Numbered from the whole stretch's first letter, positions 156 to 59,049 are shown. The stretch: 62,108 nt of DNA, filler included, from 14 parts of 14 records of this genome joined end to end with filler, not necessarily neighbours in it; one strand, 5' to 3'. A program made the numbers and translations. The notes: generated from the sequence alone by a model not told the origin.

Positions 156-2764
156 TCAGTTCAGAGCCTCGGCAGCAGCCTCTCCTACGGCCTCTTCGGC
201 GGCCCCCTCTTCGGCGGCCCCCTCTTCAGCAGCTGGCTCCGCATCCTCTGGAGTAGACTGCTGCTTCGCCCCCTTAAAGAAGATGGTGAACAGCGTGATC
301 TTCTCGCTGTCGAATATTGGCGGGTTCTGGTTGTGCATGTATATAGTGCCCCAGATGAACGCGGTGAACCACTTATCCATGTTCTTATTCTGAACGTATC
401 TGCGGACCAGAATCTGGTGGGGCACTGGTAGCAGCCCGACCATAGTGCTCTCTTGGATGACCTCGAGCAAACTGACACACCCTCGGCCCGCATCCCTGCC
501 GCTATGCACACCTAGCTTCGCCTGTGCTCGGATCCTTCGAGCAGATTGCTTCCATCTTAGGGGCCAGCGCAGCCAGCAGCCTTTGCAGCGTCTCGAGGGG
601 CAGCTTCTTCTTCCAACTCTGCTCAATCGTATCAAAGCAAGCTGAGCAATGGGAGGCGCCTGAAGCCACTGGTCCGTGGCTGCAAATTCAATAGTCCCCG
701 GCTCCTTCTCGCCGCCAGCTGGTGCCTCCGCCTGAGACCGCGCTGATGCATCGTGAGCACACAGTCACACCTCGGCAGGCGCAGCTACTGCCTCAGCCTC
801 GGCCTCAGCGGCCGCCTGAGCTTCTCTCAGCCGGCCGTTGATAAACTCCTCCTTGCTCAATACCCCGTCACCGTTGGCGTCCATAGTCTCAAACTCCTGC
901 TCGGCTTTCTTGGTCACTGCCCAGGCTCAGCCGTGTAGAGCCTCGCTCGCACCATCGGCCACTAGCGCATCGTGAGAGACCACAAGCGCATTGGACGCTG
1001 TCGACACAACACGGAGAGAACTCTGGATCCCAAGCCCAGTCAGGCGACACGTTGGGCGGGAGCCCACCAGTTGCTCGAAAGTGGCCTTGCGTCTAATGAT
1101 GGCATAGATGAGCTGCGGGTTGCCTGCACCTCTGTGTCACGCCGATTTTGAGCACGAGCTGCACCTGAGTACTGGTACTGGATCACATTGTTGAATATCT
1201 CGATTAGCATTAGCACGAAATGGTGCGCCCGCTCTCGAGTCAGCAGCAGCTTGGGGGTCGAAAAGATCTCAAAGAGTCCGAGCAGCTTGACCGCTGCGAC
1301 AGAAGAGAGAGAGCCTATGTACGGAGACACGTTGCACAGCACAGTGAGCAATGTGTCGATCATTGTATCGCCCCGCTCCACGCCGTCGACTATCAGTTTG
1401 TGCACCGCTAGCACAATCAGGTCGGCATAGGTGCCCGACACCTGGCCTTGGCTCAGCGGCTCAGCAGGCTCGCACCCACCGAAGGTAGATCTGTTGGAAG
1501 GGTCACCACAAGATCCGAATTGAGCAGCACGCCAAACTCTCTCTCGCCGGACATCCTAAGCAGGATAAATGTGCACACGTTGAGCAGGCCCATCTTAGAC
1601 GGCTCCCGCCGGGCGTCCACCATGAGGTAAACAATCGGGAGCACCAGATCTCTGAACCGTCGCTCCGAGAGCACGTACGCGACAAAGCTCGGGTTGAGGT
1701 CGATCACGTCCCAGAGCAGGATGAGCAGCTCCTGGTGGCAGTGAATCTGCTTCATCCCGCCGGACAGGTATGTGTTGCTTGCTTGCAACGGGTTAAGCAG
1801 CAACCTCACAAACCCATCAAACAGCCGACCAAGCGACTCCGGCTTGCCCATAGAGCCGATCAACCGCACCACCTCATTTGACGAGGCCGCCGTGGCGGCT
1901 GGCTCCCCTGGCGTCCGGAACCTGCAGCCAGCCATGAGACGAGCCAGCAGTCTGGCCGAACCGCTGGTTGAGCATCACTAGCATCAAGTGGAGCGCCGTG
2001 TCGACCATCGGCTCCTGGTAGTCGGCAAACATTTTGCCGCTGTACGGTACCCCCCAGCCCACGGGATCGTACGCGAATATCACGTTGATCATCGAGAAGC
2101 ATAGTGTGGGTGCCAGGGTGTTGCTCGCGTCTACTATGGCTAGCATGAACCGATCCTGCGAGGTTGTCACCGCCTCAAGCGGCGCGTAGATCGCGCTGGA
2201 CGAGCAGGCTAGCATGCACCGGAGCACATCGTGCCGCGCCATCGCCATCGTCGAGCTCGGCGCCCGGGCCGACATCCAGAGTAGGTGCCGTTCGATTCCC
2301 GACTCGGTGGTACTCGCTGGCTCATCGGCGGCGTAGATGGTGCCGTCAGTTACAAACAGCAGCCTGACCAGCGTGTGGGCCATTCGGACGCCCAGCTGCT
2401 CTGACGGCTCCCCGGACCACAGACAGCTCTCCAGCAGTCCATCGCTGTCGTGTTCGAGCATTATGGGCATCACCCGGGTGAGCATCGAGCAGGCACGCAG
2501 CGCGGTCACGAATGGCTGGGCCCCGTCGGCCGCGTTCTGCATCGCCGAGACCGCCTCCCGGAGCATCTGCTTCATGTTGCCCGGCTTGTGCTCCCGTATC
2601 AGCCGAATGTCCGACGGCGAGAGGTCCTGGAACACGTCCCATATGGTGAGTGCGTGCGCGCCCCACAGCTCAGCCCAGAAATCAGGCGACGGGTCGGGCA
2701 GGTCGTCCTCCTTGAGCTGCAGCACCGCCTGGCAGAAGTGCAGCTTGCTATCGCTGCTACCCAT
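156..2764 (-). CDS. HID1: HID1 family protein (Golgi/TGN, dense-core vesicle biogenesis), 8 introns
   Basis: N-terminus MGSSDSKLHF (myristoylation motif as in HID1 MGSTDSKLNF). Conserved blocks YDPVGWGVPY, FILLRMSGEREFGV, QYQYSGNPQLIYAII, SWKKKLPLETL, GLLPVPHQILVRRY. Introns include 1922-1961, 1442-1479, 917-952, 732-770, 619-659 (GC-AG) and 472-511. Confidence 0.92.
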
Positions 2765-3330
2765 CGCCTGCCGCACCGACGCGCAGCGCTGTGTCGATCG
2801 ATTACAGACTGCAGGCTACGCATAGAGTCTACTTGAAAATACCCTTTTAAAAGCGAGATGCATGCGGAGCACCTGCGGGCGGCGCGGGCAGAGCTCGGCC
2901 CGGGAGCGGGCTTGCCGCTCCACACGGTCTCACCTTTGCCGGTGTGCGCGGCCTGTGCCGCGTGCCGGGCCAGCAACCCACTGGCTCGTGATGAGGAGCG
3001 CGGTGTCGACCATATGCTGGACATGTGTACTTCCAAATATCCTCCAACCAACCGCTTCTAAGTCGCGGCGACGGTGCTGATTTGCGCAAGATGAAGCTGC
3101 ACCGGCCTGGATTCTCCATGTACGGCAAGACTACAACATCTCTTATGAAGAATAGGTCTAAATAAGTTATAGAACCAAACGTATGCGACCATCGATCGAT
3201 ATATATATAAACCAATTGAATATCCATGGACACTGTCAGTGGACACTGTAACCACTTTGTACGATTGTGTTACAATATCTTGTTGGTAGCTTACATACTA
3301 TTAGTGTACTCATCAGTTTCATTGTTTTCA

Positions 3331-3901: not shown

Positions 3902-4001
3902 NNNNNNNNNNNNNNNNNNNNNNNNNNNNNNNNNNNNNNNNNNNNTTAATTAATTAANNNNNNNNNNNNNNNNNNNNNNNNNNNNNNNNNNNNNNNNNNN
4001 N
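3902..4001. other. Artificial contig-join spacer (N44-TTAATTAATTAA-N44)
   Basis: The identical 100-nt spacer with stops in all six frames also occurs at 8971-9070, 14799-14898, 18250-18349, 24281-24380, 29635-29734, 34304-34403, 37497-37596, 41568-41667, 44835-44934, 49442-49541, 52784-52883 and 58950-59049. Confidence 0.98.
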
Positions 4002-8970: not shown

Positions 8971-9070
8971 NNNNNNNNNNNNNNNNNNNNNNNNNNNNNN
9001 NNNNNNNNNNNNNNTTAATTAATTAANNNNNNNNNNNNNNNNNNNNNNNNNNNNNNNNNNNNNNNNNNNN

Positions 9071-52914: not shown

Positions 52915-54159
52915 TTATTTTTCTTGACACGCATATTTGTTTGGTTTGATGTACCGCTTAGCAACAATCCGATGCTCCCGAGGCAGCCTCGTGTCCCTGA
53001 ATGGAACGACTCCACCCATCTCGGCAAGCCTCATGTAGTCAATCTTTGCCGAGCGCCCCCCCGACTCACTCAGCTCCCGGTACCACTGTTTCCGGAGCCG
53101 ACAAGTCTCAGTGTCCGGCAGATCGCCTCTGGCCTCAGGGCACAAGTCAAAAAGCCGTTGGAGCACGAGTGCAGCAGCCACTCCGAGATTGTAGCTTTCC
53201 GTGAACCCATGCATGGGTAGAAAGACCCGCCTATCCGCTGCTTGGAGCATCTCGTCTGACACACCAGCGCTCTCCTGCCCGACAACCACCGCGAGCCGCT
53301 GCGGCACAGCTAGTCTGTCTGCAGTTAAAGCAACCGCAGTTTGATCCAAATCTGTAGCCCACACAGTCCGCCCGTCCTGCCTCAACGCGGCGAGGCACTC
53401 TAACGTCGTACTGAATGTCCGGACATCCAGATGCGACTGATACAACTGAGCTCTCGAGAACCCCATCAGGTGGTCTGGCCGCCGGGCCCTATGCCGGGCT
53501 GAAGGCCGGCCTCCACGCATCACAGGAGCTTGGACCAGCCATACATGTTGCACTCCCATCGCCTCACAAGTGCGCATGATCGCCACGTGGTTGAAATCAT
53601 CGGTGCAGTTCTCAAGCACGAGCATGAAACGCTCGGTCCGGGCTCGGAGCACCGTCTCCGCCTTCCTCATTACCCTCAGCGGATCTTCTGCGCTGTCTGC
53701 ATCCAATGGATTAGCCTGCTCCAAGGCGCTCTCGATCTGCTCCTCACTGCACCCCGTCTCGGCTGCCATCTCCATTGAGTCGAGGAGCATCTTCTCTCCC
53801 GACTCCTCCGAGGCAGCCGCGGCCGCCTCCGAGGCCGCGACGGTGCCGGGAGCGAGACCCGGGTTCTGCGCATGGAACGCTGTCCACGCACTGTTCTGGA
53901 CGGTCGGTACGAAGCTCTCCACACATTGGGCGCATTTACGCCGATCTGGCCCGCGCCTGGCCTGCTTGGCGGCGTAAGCGGAGGCCGGGCGCATCCTGCG
54001 GCACATAGCGCACTGGAGCTGCGTCTCGGCCGTATTATTACAGGCCTCCGGCGCTGTCGGCGCTGGGTCTGGCGCTGGAGCGGAGCGCCAGCGGCTGGCT
54101 ACTGTGGCGGCGGCCACCCCGAGTCCGAAGCCACAGAGCAAGTCTCGCATCGCCACCAT
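52915..54159 (-). CDS. SpoU/TrmH-family tRNA 2'-O-methyltransferase with N-terminal Stc1-like zinc finger
   Basis: Motifs LVLENCTDDFNHVAIMRTCEAMG, VVGQESAGVS, LPMHGFTESYNLGVAAA, plus a CxxC...CxxC finger. Confidence 0.85.
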   Translation of the reverse strand: MVAMRDLLCGFGLGVAAATVASRWRSAPAPDPAPTAPEACNNTAETQLQCAMCRRMRPASAYAAKQARRGPDRRKCAQCVESFVPTVQNSAWTAFHAQNPGLAPGTVAASEAAAAASEESGEKMLLDSMEMAAETGCSEEQIESALEQANPLDADSAEDPLRVMRKAETVLRARTERFMLVLENCTDDFNHVAIMRTCEAMGVQHVWLVQAPVMRGGRPSARHRARRPDHLMGFSRAQLYQSHLDVRTFSTTLECLAALRQDGRTVWATDLDQTAVALTADRLAVPQRLAVVVGQESAGVSDEMLQAADRRVFLPMHGFTESYNLGVAAALVLQRLFDLCPEARGDLPDTETCRLRKQWYRELSESGGRSAKIDYMRLAEMGGVVPFRDTRLPREHRIVAKRYIKPNKYACQEK

Positions 54160-54317
54160 TTCAGAGTGCAGGGAGGAGGCACCGCGGCCGTGGCCGTCCG
54201 GAGATGAGTGGATCAAGCCGTTACAGACATGGGCAGCAGGGGCGCGGACAGGGACAGCTGGGCCTGTGTGGGGCTGGCCGGCTGGGCCGACGGCCCGCTG
54301 ACCTCCGCCGGGACCGC

Positions 54318-55008
54318 CATGGCCATCGCCCCGAGCGTCGGCGCCGATTGGGGACCTGGGGCGGCCAAGGTGCATATGCTGCCCGTCGGCCCGAGAGCCG
54401 AGAGTCTCCCGCCTCTCCAGAGCGCAATGGTTAGAGTGCGCCAGACGCTCGCAGCAGGCTCAGGCGCCGTGCAGCCGGTGCGGCCACCGGTTGGGCAGAG
54501 GCTGACGGCCGGCAGGTGTGCATCGACCCGTCGGACTTGGCCGAGGAGATTGCAACCCGCGAGTCGGCTTACTGTCGGGTGCGGGCGTCTGTCGCCGAGA
54601 GCCGGAGGCGGATGGACGATCGGTGCGGGGTGGCGATGCAGGCTATCCAGGAGAGGGCCGACGAGGACTTGAAAAAGATTGGAGAGAGCGCTGGGCAACT
54701 GCGTGAGATGGGAGAGCGCGATGCGCTGTTGAAGAGGATTCAGGAACGGCAGGCGGCCATGGAGGTTAGACTCGACAGGTGGGCGGTGGGCGGTGCTTGC
54801 CGGTGCTAATCGGCCGTTTGTCAGGCTCAAGCCGAATCGGCATAAGTTTCCGCGAGGCGCCCCAGGCCAACGAGATAGGTGCGGGTCCTGGTCAAGACGG
54901 AGTGAGGGTGTGGGCCAGGAGCCTCGGGCTGATCCATCTGACCAACTCTGGGACGATGCGCCGCGCCCGATGAGCTGTGCAGCCGTGGAGCAAAGGCCGT
55001 CTGACTGA
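54318..55008 (+). CDS. Hypothetical coiled-coil protein, multi-exon
   Basis: Coiled-coil-like exon 54516-54778 flanked by GT-AG introns; start codon uncertain. Confidence 0.4.
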
Positions 55009-55199
55009 GAGGCCCGGCTGAGGTGTCTGTTTACGCGTGTCTGTCACGCGGCGTGGATTGTACTCGTACTTCTGGGAGTCATACGGTGCATTACATGTAC
55101 ATAAGTACGTAAATCTAACGTAAATCACTAATGACGATTATATGTACGGTCGCGATTCTTTGTCTTCTTGTGCTTAGCTATCGCCTGGCCTGGCCCGGC

Positions 55200-58100
55200 C
55201 TAGCTTTCTAGTTGTTCGCAAAACGAATTAAATTCCCTGAGTGCGTGCGCTTGGTGCTCCTGAGACTTGCTGCTCCGCTCGCCCGCCGGCCGCGCCTCAA
55301 GCTCGTGCTTATACCAACAGTCCGTGCCATAATCGCACCGGTCAAGCGTCCCCACTAGGTCCGGCCGCTTGCTCCCAACCGAATACTTGTCGGATCCGTC
55401 GTGCCAGGGATCTGGCCTCGAGAGGGCGCGGCCTACAGCTCTCTTCAGATGCCGGGCAAGTATCCGGTGCCCAGCCGAGTTTGGGTGAAGCTTATCAGGC
55501 ATTAGCCTGCAACCCGCTCTCACTACAGTGGGGCTGCCCGCTCACAGACCGTGTGTCAACTGCCCGGCCCGAGCCGTCTAGAAACTCACTGAAGCAGTCT
55601 ACAAACAGCGTGCGCGGCCTGTCATTTTGTGATGGCTCAGCCGCACGGCGGCGGCACCGGCCGTCTAGGTGCTGCCGCAGCTGCCGATTAATATCGCTGA
55701 TCGTTTCGAGGATCCCGATAGGCCCCGGCCTGTGCGGCTCGCGCCGTGGCAGAATGCTCAGCAATAGCACGGTAGCCTCTGGCTTAAGGCGGTGTGCTTG
55801 GGAGACCAGAGAGAGCAAGCTGTCCACTATCCGCTGGACCGACCAGTCTGACCGGCCAAGGTTGTTAGTGCCTATCCCGACCACCACCACCTACAGCCCC
55901 GCCGTCAGCATCCGCCAGCGCCAGCGAATGCCTCTAGCAAAGGCCAGTGCCGTGGTTGGCTGAGCTGAGGATCCTGCAGCCGCCACAGTGCGTGCTGGAT
56001 CTGGTCGCCCGCAGCCGCGAAGCAGACCCCTTGGATCTCACGGGCCCGGTCCCGCTTGTTCAGCTTAAACTCGCGATCCCAGATCTATTCGAGCGCTCAA
56101 TTGCGACCTTACTGTACGGCACCTCCGGGACTCCTTCGTTTTTATATCTGTGCACTCCAAGCCTGATCCGACGCTCAGAATACGGACACTCGCTTACAGC
56201 ACCGCGTGCCGAGCCAGCATTCAAAGATGGAATCTCCTAAAAACAGCGTATTGGCTAACGGGCCCATCTCCCTGCCGCCCGATCGGCCCTCCACCAAGCG
56301 CAAGGCTCGCCTGGCTTCGGTGACAAACGCGCTATGCAGTCGTTGCCACTCAGGCTCTCGTCTCGGCTCCGCACGCACCGCCACCCGCCGCACGGCCGAT
56401 GGGAACGTCCTGGGCTGAAGCCGCACCGGGGCCTGCTCGGCAGCGAGCTCCGACCGCTGCTGAGACTCGCGCCAGCCACTTGGAGCCTCGTCGGGCCTGC
56501 AGACACGGCTGACGGGGTTACTCAGGCAGCTCGCTCACCCCTCGCCCGGCCGACTGTGCACTCCGCTGGGCGCCTCAGCGATCTGCCGTTCTATGCGCGC
56601 GGCGACCTGTCCTCCGGTCAGCCGCTTTCTGACTGACTTAACCAACCTTGAGTTGGTTCTGAGCGCAGAGCATATGAACCTCGCCGCGCTCGCTTACGGC
56701 CTCGGACCCGGCAAGCTGGGCTTCGATCTGCGCTTCCAGCCTGTTCCTGCTCTGCAGCAGGCACGATCCGCGCTCTGCAGGCTCGCCTGCGGCCTGTTTC
56801 AAACGATTCGAAAGCTCCGACAGAGGGAGGTCGTCGGGACTCTCAGGTGCGCTGTCGGAAGGTGCGGCCTGCGGCTGCTCGGCCGTGACGACTGCCGGCT
56901 CATCGTCTGACGAGATCTCAACTACCGCCTCAGGCTCCGGCTCGGGCTCCGGCTTCGGCTCGGGAGTGGGCTTTGGGGCTGCGGTGTTGAAATGCCGTTG
57001 AACCTGTAGCCGTGCTGGCTTGGGGATTGGGCGGAGCGCACACCTCTAGTTTGGACCGGAACTTCTTGCCTCCCGGAGCTGTGAAGTAATAATCCCACTT
57101 GGGTTTGCCACGGAGGAGCCTACTCTTGGCCTGACACACTGTCGGCGCTGCCACGGGAGGGCTGGATGGTAATGCCTGGCATTGCCACCCGACCAGCCGG
57201 GCATGCGGGCAGTGGACCGAGAGGTGATCTCTGAGTTTATCAAGCATCTCTTCCGCCACCTGCAACCGAACTCGTCCCGGGCCGGGCAGGCCGGGCCGAC
57301 CTTGGCTCTCTCAGCTGGGCATGGCGCGGCGGACTGGTCAGCTGGCTGTGCGGGCTGGTTGTTTAGCTCCAACGACAGGCCGTTAGCGGGCGCATCGGAT
57401 GGCTCTTTAGGCGTATCTGCTTCGAGCTTTGTCGGTTGGCTCAGTTGTGTCGGCTGTTTGGGCTGAGCTGCAGGCTTCTGAGGCTTGACAGTAGCTTTGC
57501 CCGTAGGCAGGTGTGCTGGCTGGCTGGACCCAACAGGGGCCGGCTGTGACAGCGCTTGCCCTGCAACAATACATTTAATCACGTCAGGCCTGCTCATAAA
57601 CACCCTGCCAACCCCGATCAGCCGCCTCCTGCACCCTAAACATCACCAAGACTCGCTCTCGCCGTTCTCGCCCGGGAAGTACACGTCATATTTGCCGTTG
57701 CTGGCAAGCTCCTCCACAGTGCCCGTCCACAGCCCATCATACCTGCCCCCTCGCATCAAGCCTCGCGCCCACAGATTGGGCACTCTCACCCATGAAATCT
57801 GCGCTGCACCTTGGCGCCCACGAGGCAATATCCTTCCGCAAACTCCGTCGGCAGGTCCGCGCAGCCCTCCTCAGCCCGCCGAACCCTCCGCGGCCCTGTG
57901 TGTCCGTTAAAATCAGTTAGGCCCCTGCTGGCTGACCTGCTGGTCCGAGTAAGTCAGCCTCGACCGGGTGAGCCCAGGCGCTCGACCTATCAAGGCTCAG
58001 GCACGGCCGAGCTGCGGCCGGACCGATCCATACCCACCACCCGGCCGCCGGCGGTGTGCACCAGCTGCGATGTGGCCAGCACCCGCCCCGTATCCCACAC

Positions 58101-58949
58101 CAGCGCCACGAACCATCTCTCTCCGTCCTGCCCACCCCACATCGTCACCAGGCTCCGGCAGCCCATACCGCCAAGCAGCTGGCCTCCCAGCGCTCCGTCC
58201 CGTCCCGCCGCTTATCCAGCTTGAGCTGCCGCCACTGCGGCCGCTCGTAACGATCTTTCTCTAAAACCACACTCCTCACAGGCGGGAGACCTCCCAGCAA
58301 AAACAAATAAACAGGCCCTCCCGGCTCCGGTATCTCGGATGGAACGTGCCATTTGACCCGGATGCCTTCGCCCGCCGAGCTGGCTTCCACCCAGAACACG
58401 AAGGGCCGTTGCAGGTCGTCGAGGTCAGCCAGCCGAGGCGGAGCGCTCGCAACTCTGGTGGCTGCCTGAACCACCCACACCGGCTCGGGAGAGCCATCGA
58501 GCTCCACTCGACAGATCAGCCCGCCGGCCGACGACAGCTTGGCCCCGCGCAGCACCCCCTTCCGCCACGCGCCCGCGAGCTCCACCTCGAGACCGGACCC
58601 TTCGCACATCCCCTCGGGCAGCCGCGGCGGCTCGGCCAGCCGCCGTACGTTCTCCAACGGAACCCACTCGGCCGGCCCACCGGCCAGGCCGGTAACGCTC
58701 ACCCGGTGCGACTCCATCTGGGCGACCACCCGGTCTACCCACTCGCCCGCCGCCACCCGGACCGCTACCACTGACTGAGGCCCGAACCCCGGCTCCGGGT
58801 CCTGCGGCCGGACGGAGGGCTTGGGCTGCTTGGGCTGCCTGGGATGCTCGGCTGGAGTCGGGGCCGGGCGTTTGGTCGGGACCGCCCCGGCCGGCTTGGT
58901 GCGCGCGGCGGCGGCGGCAGGGAGGCCGGGCTGGTTGTGCTGCGGGCAG
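55200..58949 (-). CDS. Agenet/Tudor + MBD + SGNH (PAF-AH-like) hydrolase fusion protein, 5'-partial, ~12 introns
   Basis: Tudor LVGAKVQRRFHG|YDGLWTGTV...KYDVYF; MBD GWQCQ|AKSR...KWDYYFTAPGGKKFRSKLE|VQRHF; SGNH FLGDSI, AGDQIQHALWRL, GIGTNN, PDKLHP. Introns 56607-56646 and 56497-56538 join the two halves in frame. Confidence 0.75.
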
Positions 58950-59049
58950 NNNNNNNNNNNNNNNNNNNNNNNNNNNNNNNNNNNNNNNNNNNNTTAATTA
59001 ATTAANNNNNNNNNNNNNNNNNNNNNNNNNNNNNNNNNNNNNNNNNNNN

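Follow-up and report, generated by a model that had tools for sequence, protein, structure and literature searches.

A predicted gene joining a methyl-CpG-binding domain to an SGNH esterase on a metagenomic contig of a GC-rich eukaryote

The DNA analysed here (the window; 62,108 nucleotides (nt)) consists of 14 contigs of 3-6 kb that are joined by linkers of the form N44-TTAATTAATTAA-N44 (at 3902-4001, at 8971-9070 and at 11 more places including 58950-59049), with stops placed in all six frames. Features are therefore not readable across the linkers, and adjacent contigs need not be genomic neighbours. We describe a gene on the minus strand of one 6.07-kb contig (52884-58949) whose product is predicted to carry a methyl-CpG-binding domain (MBD) upstream of an SGNH (GDSL-type) esterase. 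Read without splicing, the minus strand of 55203-58949 yields only fragments of open reading frames (ORFs). The removal of 11 introns leaves a single frame of 1042 codons without in-frame stops, in agreement with an earlier note on this DNA, which had seen scattered fragments that merge into one minus-strand frame once introns are taken out. The exons were put together by coordinates from the minus-strand reading, giving 12 exons and the stop TAG at 55202-55200. The upstream edge given in that note, 58949, is the end of the contig and not a gene start; the gene is thus 5'-truncated, and the N-terminus of its product is lost at the contig end. The features of the gene are as follows.

55200-58949, minus: whole gene as far as present; spliced model of 12 exons and 1042 codons
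58169-58949, minus: exon 1 (260 full codons; GC content at third codon positions (GC3) 0.82); no domain assigned
58128-58168, minus: intron 1, 41 nt, GT-AG, with a branch-like motif GTGAC
58034-58127, minus: exon 2, continuing the beta-rich region (GC3 0.87)
57896-58033, minus: intron 2, 138 nt, GT-AG, with a CTAAC motif
57565-57895, minus: Agenet/Tudor-like domain C (the 'Tudor' of the earlier note), on exons 3, 4 and the start of exon 5
57790-57895, minus: exon 3, first part of domain C
57743-57789, minus: intron 3, 47 nt, interrupting domain C
57647-57742, minus: exon 4 (31 residues), second part of domain C
57605-57646, minus: intron 4, 42 nt, interrupting domain C
57189-57604, minus: exon 5, which completes domain C and then holds a Pro/Gln/Ala-rich linker and the first strand of the MBD; codon score best in the model frame
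56989-57207, minus: MBD, with its core on exon 6 (57044-57147)
57193-57204, minus: P-G-W motif of the first MBD strand, in exon 5
57148-57188, minus: intron 5, 41 nt, splitting the MBD
57004-57043, minus: intron 6, 40 nt, splitting the MBD
56647-57003, minus: exon 7, running uninterrupted from the last MBD helix into an acidic/Pro-rich and helical linker; holds the in-frame ATG 56673
56607-56646, minus: intron 7 (first linking intron), 40 nt, GT..CAG/G, with CTGAC
56539-56606, minus: exon 8, linker, 22 full codons, a length at which the codon score is uninformative
56497-56538, minus: intron 8 (second linking intron), 42 nt, GTGAGC..CAG/G, in the spliced model
55425-56378, minus: SGNH (GDSL-type, PAF-AH Ib-like) esterase domain, exons 9-12, placed by homologue alignment, Pfam and PDB
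56334-56351, minus: N-terminal W..H helix, before block I
56229-56237, minus: block I, GDS, with the nucleophile Ser; aligns with the homologues P0001 and P0002
56085-56189, minus: intron 9, 105 nt, weak GTGTCC donor, between blocks I and II; the junction fits the homologue alignment
56004-56018, minus: stretch containing the block II Gly; aligns with homologues and PAF-AH Ib
55891-55931, minus: intron 10, 41 nt, GC-AG, with CTGAC and a TAG acceptor, between blocks II and III; the junction fits the homologues
55861-55872, minus: block III, GTNN; aligns with homologues and PAF-AH Ib
55507-55549, minus: intron 11, 43 nt, GTCTGT..CAG/G, just before block V; the junction fits the homologue alignment
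55485-55496, minus: block V, D-x-x-H (D-K-L-H); aligns with D-G-L-H of P0001 and P0002
55203-55424, minus: C-terminal tail, with two non-synonymous variants
55034-55199, minus: AT-rich 3' flank (GC 0.38-0.46), with TGTAA at 55095, ~105 nt past the stop

From the N-terminus, the product would comprise a beta-rich region, one Agenet/Tudor-like domain, the MBD, a linker, the PAF-AH Ib-like SGNH esterase with its catalytic residues intact, and a short tail, an order that we are inclined to accept. In 5' to 3' order the introns measure 41, 138, 47, 42, 41, 40, 40, 42, 105, 41 and 43 nt. Ten of the 11 are GT-AG (eight of 40-47 nt, one of 105 nt and one of 138 nt) and the eleventh, of 41 nt, is GC-AG. 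The earlier description of the introns as typical ones of 40-47 nt fits those eight and the GC-AG intron, and fails for the 105-nt and 138-nt ones. Coding periodicity (GC1>GC2<GC3) was seen in the model frame of every exon (12/12), and the GC content around the gene is 57-68% in 1-kb windows. A histogram of intron lengths across the full window showed no peak, the signal being swamped by the long ORFs that this GC-rich DNA has in every frame; an Rfam scan of the same 62-kb stretch gave no match. Most likely, one protein-coding gene occupies the locus, from a GC-rich eukaryote whose introns are ~40 nt long, and its product would have at least 1042 residues. We take the organism to be an uncultured, GC-rich, marine-type eukaryote.

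The esterase call is solid on homology, and esterase activity is predicted. All queries to Pfam, PDB, the ESM Atlas and AlphaFold were unbroken translations of single exons. Exon 11 by itself matched Pfam PF13472 (Lipase_GDSL_2) with E 2.6e-6 to 4.2e-6 (27.8-28.5 bits against a cut-off of 32.9), and a HMMER search with the same exon among 1.84 billion representatives found 12 proteins (best E 2.8e-8), 10 of them SGNH proteins and mostly tandem SGNH repeats; none of the 12 carries an MBD or a Tudor-family domain. With phmmer, the spliced SGNH region aligned with P0001 at 77.8 bits, colinear over the exon 9/10, 10/11 and 11/12 junctions, and it is also colinear with four repeats of P0002. Homologues that reach 1.9e-42 for Lipase_GDSL_2 match the spliced region at each catalytic residue (Ser, Gly, Asn and Asp/His), so that the blocks reported earlier (GDS, block II Gly, GTNN and D-x-x-H) are indeed all present and intact. 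The W..H helix also lies ahead of SGNH domains in P0001 (twice), P0004, P0005 and P0011 of the 12-protein set, as a weak match (E 0.008-0.03). Among PDB sequences, all seven matches of exon 10 are to PAF-AH Ib (E 0.09-1), and the best non-repeat match of exon 11 is again PAF-AH Ib (E 0.0034). PAF-AH Ib proteins are hence the best solved relatives of both exons; the earlier note names PAF-AH Ib-type SGNH enzymes as acetylesterases.

Some details of this region were settled by elimination. The GC content of intron 9 (0.52) is the lowest inside the gene, and of the eleven donors its own is placed least securely; a model with two introns and a mini-exon inside 56189-56085 was rejected, as its second intron would be only 28 nt, which is too short. 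The donor of intron 10 must be GC because no GT is in phase. TAL-effector structures matched the block III exon (55552-55890) with E values down to 2e-12. A stretch of ~40 residues in this exon weakly resembles the 34-residue TALE repeat, and many repeats sum. We rejected these matches as an artefact of repeat summation because no single stretch passes, with a per-repeat E of at least 110 in both displayed matches. An encapsulin match of exon 9 (PDB, E 1.1) was dismissed as chance.

The MBD call also holds, at a level below the Pfam cut-off. PF01429 matched the MBD core exon alone with E 0.0015-0.0016 (18.4-18.5 bits against a cut-off of 21), and all 23 matches of the core among PDB sequences are to MBD2, MeCP2, MBD3, MBD4 or ARBP. 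These results back the earlier placement of an MBD at ~56990-57190. Both the core sheet and the G-K-K-F-R-S-K segment are present, and the 41-nt intron has to be removed to bring the P-G-W strand in frame with the core, where it then stands at the expected spacing.

Upstream of the MBD, the evidence is thinner. Exon 4 matched five PDB entries, of which three are plant Agenet structures (5zwx, 6ie4 and 7yt9; E 0.07-0.85). Exon 3 by itself gave no PDB match, and domain C gave no Pfam match when its exons were scored one by one, the domain being split over three of them. These matches point only weakly to an Agenet-like domain C. The Tudor domain that the earlier note had placed at ~57600-57820 thus finds some structural likeness in its second exon and none in Pfam. 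The plant Agenet readers AGDP1 and AGDP3 (6ie4, 7yt9, 5zwx) bind H3K9me2. Exon 4 resembles the second half of their Agenet domain, whereas the first half of domain C has no match, and in the plant proteins the Agenet domains come in tandem, with no enzyme attached.

Exon 1 opens with a Pro/Ala/Lys-rich part, followed by two Tudor-like-looking segments (58783-58625 and 58612-58433) and by the start of the beta-rich region; it holds one synonymous variant, at 58181. Agenet-like repeats had been proposed at ~58450-58770, and nothing we tried supports them: exon 1 gave no match in Pfam and no usable match in the ESM Atlas, the segments at 58783-58433 gave only two chance-level matches among PDB sequences, an AlphaFold model of residues 51-260 from the single sequence reached a predicted local distance difference test score (pLDDT) of 39.5 and was not used, and internal-repeat statistics gave pairwise z-scores of -1.3 to 0.3, i.e. 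no internal similarity among the upstream segments.

At the other end of the gene, the tail contains a partial CCCH-like motif (C-x5-C-x3-H; 55305-55337, minus strand) that lacks the first Cys. It matched Pfam zf_CCCH_4 at positions 8-19 of 19, below the cut-off (E 0.036-0.039), and is either a degenerate finger or the sign of a small intron missing from the model. The AT-rich flank that follows is probably the 3' untranslated region and transcript end. TGTAA is known as a polyadenylation signal from green algae, and may act as one here. Downstream on the same contig lies an intron-free ORF of 514 codons (52918-54459, minus strand) with a SpoU rRNA/tRNA methylase domain (9.4e-24), preceded by a long N-terminal extension rich in Gly, Pro and Ala. 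The known members of the Atlas cluster closest to this ORF are mainly haptophytes, no more than a weak hint at the source organism. A similar AT-rich dip follows the stop of the ORF, at the contig end (52884-52914). Other contigs of the window carry ordinary eukaryotic genes over overlapping ORFs, namely Hid1/Dymeclin, a Sen1-type helicase, actin, a P-type ATPase, an aminotransferase and an aldo-keto reductase. The Hid1/Dymeclin-family gene (159-2815, minus strand) is broken up into four overlapping ORFs, with matches to profile positions 1-303, 319-452, 458-551 and 744-812, and could provide an independent set of homology-anchored short introns for the same organism.

The question on which the locus turns is whether the MBD and the esterase belong to one gene. 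They are separated by a linker of ~175 residues, Pro/acidic and helical in character, for which no homology to anything was found in Pfam or PDB. The two linking introns given in the earlier note (56607-56646, 40 nt, GT-AG with CTGAC; 56497-56538, 42 nt, GT-AG) lie at exactly those positions in our model and join the frames. In codon usage, the model frame scores +22.0 in exon 7 against +16.0 for the next best frame, and +31.2 over the whole linker against +22.3 for the next best of the six. In 100-nt windows the only places on the contig where the GC content is under 0.5 lie immediately behind its two stop codons, and none lies between the MBD and the SGNH domain, which agrees with the reported lack of an AT-rich spacer there; TGTAA was not found in this interval either. 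The further claim that no in-frame ATG could start the esterase separately proved wrong as worded, since two in-frame ATGs exist between the MBD and the GDS motif, at 56673 and 56267. The first shares an uninterrupted exon with the last MBD helix and the second is 10 codons ahead of GDS, where a start would remove the conserved W..H helix. For these two reasons neither ATG is a plausible separate start for the esterase. The predicted link between MBD and SGNH domain is favoured by the features of the introns, the codon usage, the logic of the start codons and the GC profile.

We also compared the gene with two DNA runs (X1 and X2; word shares 0.09 and 0.08), whose small contigs match pieces all along it at 95-99% identity. 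In exon 10, within the esterase, all four variants (4/4) are synonymous, and this one esterase exon is under purifying selection. Substitutions in exons 5 and 7 and in the tail are mixed (nine non-synonymous, three synonymous), and the linker in exon 5 has an in-frame 3-nt deletion at 57455 in a related strain. Intron 2 carries three substitutions and a 1-nt deletion (57915-57926) in a related-strain contig, which fits non-coding DNA; one further variant falls within intron 11, at 55513. An X2 contig spans 55916-56089, in the region of intron 10, without indels, and the stretch 56538-56740 is spanned by no contig of X1 or X2; the pieces showed no joints. A (GAGCCG)n-like stretch at 56925-56964, encoding a Pro-Glu repeat, draws unrelated metagenomic contigs to a depth of ~90-130 in X1; that depth is the effect of a low-complexity magnet and not of abundance.

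Searches for relatives of the whole protein were made in several ways. Word-index homologue searches with the SGNH exon, exon 1 and the MBD core (E up to 10) gave no match, and scans of metagenome contigs with the exon 1 protein and with a degenerate DNA pattern of the MBD core peptide gave no relative; since gene calls on metagenomic DNA in the databases searched do not allow for splicing, fused relatives from eukaryotes may escape such searches. In full-text literature, 'methyl-CpG-binding domain' and 'SGNH' occurred together only in an unrelated plant study, and no co-mention of MBD, Tudor and GDSL was found with or without 'domain architecture'. Literature on SGNH, chromatin, histone and reader described no such fusion protein, and the main text of a broad survey of chromatin-protein evolution mentions no esterase or SGNH domain (bioRxiv 10.1101/2021.11.30.470311). 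The remark in the earlier note that this architecture is not known from described proteins agrees with these searches, which found neither a fused relative nor a description. Reader-enzyme fusions and the capture of readers by transposons are well known, and it is the combination of MBD and SGNH esterase that is undescribed in the literature searched.

Several known systems resemble parts of the predicted protein. The PAF-AH Ib subunits (SGNH acetylhydrolases; 1wab, 1fxw, 3dt6) share the GTNN block III, the block II region and the W..H helix at low similarity (E 0.0034 and 0.09 per exon); they are stand-alone proteins of ~230 residues, whereas here the domain lies at the end of a protein that exceeds 1000 residues and has chromatin-type domains. 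SETDB1 carries Tudor domains, and SETDB1/2-type proteins (Tudor, MBD and SET) likewise have their catalytic domain preceded by an MBD and a module of the Tudor family. The above survey attributes an MBD to the SETDB1/2 homologues of animals (bioRxiv 10.1101/2021.11.30.470311). SETDB1/2 are methyltransferase writers, whereas the esterase here would be a hydrolytic, eraser-type activity, and no SET domain was found in any exon (Pfam, E up to 10). Among characterised proteins, the closest example of an SGNH esterase that follows a coiled coil is the ORF1 protein (ORF1p) of ZfL2-1, a long interspersed nuclear element (LINE) of CR1/L2 type. It has an acetylesterase-type SGNH domain behind a helical/coiled-coil segment in a nucleic-acid/chromatin-related context; its esterase is catalytically conserved, and the protein binds acidic phospholipids (PMC3905857). 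The ORF1p esterases have no MBD, whereas the present gene has 11 introns, no ORF2, reverse transcriptase or endonuclease nearby and a housekeeping neighbour, and the likeness to ORF1p is known at the level of the fold. In the OSK domain of Oskar, an SGNH fold was recruited into a nucleic-acid/ribonucleoprotein pathway with Tudor-domain partners and lost its catalytic Ser and His, both of which are kept here (PMC2848206).

A number of observations weigh against reading the locus as one gene for a chromatin reader fused to an esterase. The source is one 6-kb metagenome-type contig, and the spliced junctions were predicted from its DNA alone; one intron requires a GC donor and another has the weak GTGTCC donor. 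The Pfam scores lie under the curated cut-offs (18.4 versus 21 for the MBD, 27.8 versus 32.9 for SGNH exon 11), because single exons were scored, and the Agenet/Tudor call comes from E values of 0.07-0.85 for one 31-residue exon. We take the methyl-CpG contacts of an MBD to be two Arg fingers, an Asp and a Tyr, the first Arg being the DNA-contacting position aligned here. In a single alignment with MBD2, which has a 2-residue gap there, the first Arg-finger position is Ala with Lys and Arg nearby; Asp, Tyr and the second Arg are present. This makes the methyl-CpG specificity, and with it the predicted methyl-CpG binding by this domain, uncertain. No orthologue with the whole architecture was found in the word-index, 1.84-billion-representative and metagenome-contig searches, so there is no evidence of the fusion being conserved. 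Finally, one X1 contig would shift the frame in the linker part of exon 9, where it has four additional letters at 56409-56411. Its depth is 9.9 versus 2.3-5.2 for the other X1 pieces, and it may come from another organism (likeness threshold 80%).

Another such observation concerns the continuity of the linker. When any GT-AG introns of 38-50 nt were allowed, the MBD-SGNH interval was bridged in 987 of 2000 shuffles and in 997 of 2000 transplanted segments; with about half of the nulls bridgeable, ORF continuity alone is no evidence for the link. Strict intron criteria (39-47 nt; a YAG/G acceptor; within -30..-6, the motif T[GA]A[CT]) reduced the bridged nulls to 0.8-0.9% (44 of the 5000 shuffles, 40 of the 5000 transplants) and left the real sequence one solution, introns 7 and 8. 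An alternative to intron 7 (43 nt, 56679-56637) fails under these criteria. The criteria were themselves chosen post hoc from the other nine introns of the gene, which show them in 7/9, 7/9 and 5/9 cases, and this also counts against the single-gene reading. On balance, the observation made in the earlier note holds up in most points, and we consider it quite likely, from what can be predicted, that the fusion gene is real.

If it is not, the locus might give two products, either with an Agenet-MBD protein that ends at the unspliced TAA (56640-56638) or with an esterase expressed from an internal promoter and starting at ATG 56673 or 56267. Such an arrangement could make use of these two in-frame ATGs, and would be in line with a linker that resembles nothing known and is bridged by chance in ~50% of nulls, and with the frame-shifting insertion of 4 letters at 56409-56411 in one related contig. 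It would have to do without the AT-rich dip of a gene end and without TGTAA in the MBD-SGNH interval, and a separate transcript would start either within the upstream gene, as ATG 56673 lies in the MBD-end exon, or at ATG 56267 with loss of the conserved N-terminal helix. Codon score moreover favours the model frame through the linker, and both linking introns have the length, acceptor and branch motif typical of the gene; we consider two products unlikely. A different objection is that the contig might be a metagenomic chimera, or the gene a pseudogene in decay with a frame that conveniently chosen introns restore. The contig is one piece of 6.07 kb from a bin in which contigs are short, one intron of the gene needs a non-canonical GC donor, and 56538-56740 is left uncovered by X1 and X2. 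Yet independent small contigs from these two other runs match all along the gene at 95-99% identity, the substitutions in esterase exon 10 are all synonymous, the catalytic blocks are intact with homology colinear over the junctions, and 1042 codons run without in-frame stops. This makes an artefact or a dead gene very improbable.

Two further explanations accept the fusion and differ in what it does or where it came from. The SGNH domain might mainly bind lipids or membranes, e.g. tethering methylated heterochromatin to the nuclear envelope. PAF-AH Ib, to which the best solved relatives of the domain belong, acts on a phospholipid. The SGNH-like domain of Oskar is described as catalytically inactive and a likely lipid binder (PMC2848206). 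The present domain differs in that all its catalytic residues are intact, and the purely synonymous variation of exon 10 argues for a retained enzymatic function; we think a mainly lipid-binding role distinctly improbable. Alternatively, the esterase might derive from a mobile element, as a non-LTR (long terminal repeat) retrotransposon ORF1p-like coiled-coil/esterase protein with captured readers that target methylated chromatin. SGNH esterases are encoded in the ORF1p of CR1/L2-, RTEX- and Penelope-type elements (PMC3905857), and transposons are reported to have recurrently captured MBDs and other readers (PMC6673714; bioRxiv 10.1101/2021.11.30.470311). However, eleven spliceosomal-type introns, a SpoU methylase gene that follows on the same strand and the lack of a second copy within the full window do not suit a mobile element. 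Of the 90 listed ORFs of at least 170 residues in the window, 86 were scanned (the four overlapping the gene were left out), and none (0/86) matched a reverse transcriptase or endonuclease. A mobile origin is accordingly the most far-fetched explanation that we considered.

Returning to a genuine fusion gene with an intact esterase, we can ask what its product might do. The earlier note had proposed a possible reader-plus-eraser, which would take acyl or ester marks off methylated chromatin; this we regard as pure inference. The Agenet-like and MBD modules would dock the protein on methylated, heterochromatin-type chromatin, and the esterase would then hydrolyse a short acyl ester, probably acetyl, at the docked site. 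Candidate substrates would be O-acetyl-ADP-ribose, an O-acylated chromatin protein or an inner-nuclear-membrane phospholipid. That the protein acts as a chromatin-targeted esterase in this sense is a tentative proposal that we would not expect to hold. Still more speculative, and in our view rather improbable, is a new class of eraser, i.e. an esterase that removes an ester-linked signal (O-acetyl-ADP-ribose or an O-acyl protein) at methylated heterochromatin and is coupled to DNA/histone methylation. A role at lipids or at the nuclear envelope is a serious alternative.

With one truncated metagenomic contig as its source, the case should be seen as a lead rather than a finding. Reader-enzyme fusions are the clearest natural hints as to which activities act on which chromatin states, as with SETDB1; MBD4 is another such fusion. 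We know of no chromatin pathway that uses an SGNH esterase. If the prediction is true, an MBD and an Agenet-like module on an intact esterase would point to an overlooked ester-linked substrate at methylated chromatin or, alternatively, to heterochromatin that is connected with lipids or the nuclear envelope in a lineage of marine protists. The fusion would, in addition, be a parallel to the ORF1 proteins of CR1/L2 retrotransposons, whose esterase is unexplained.

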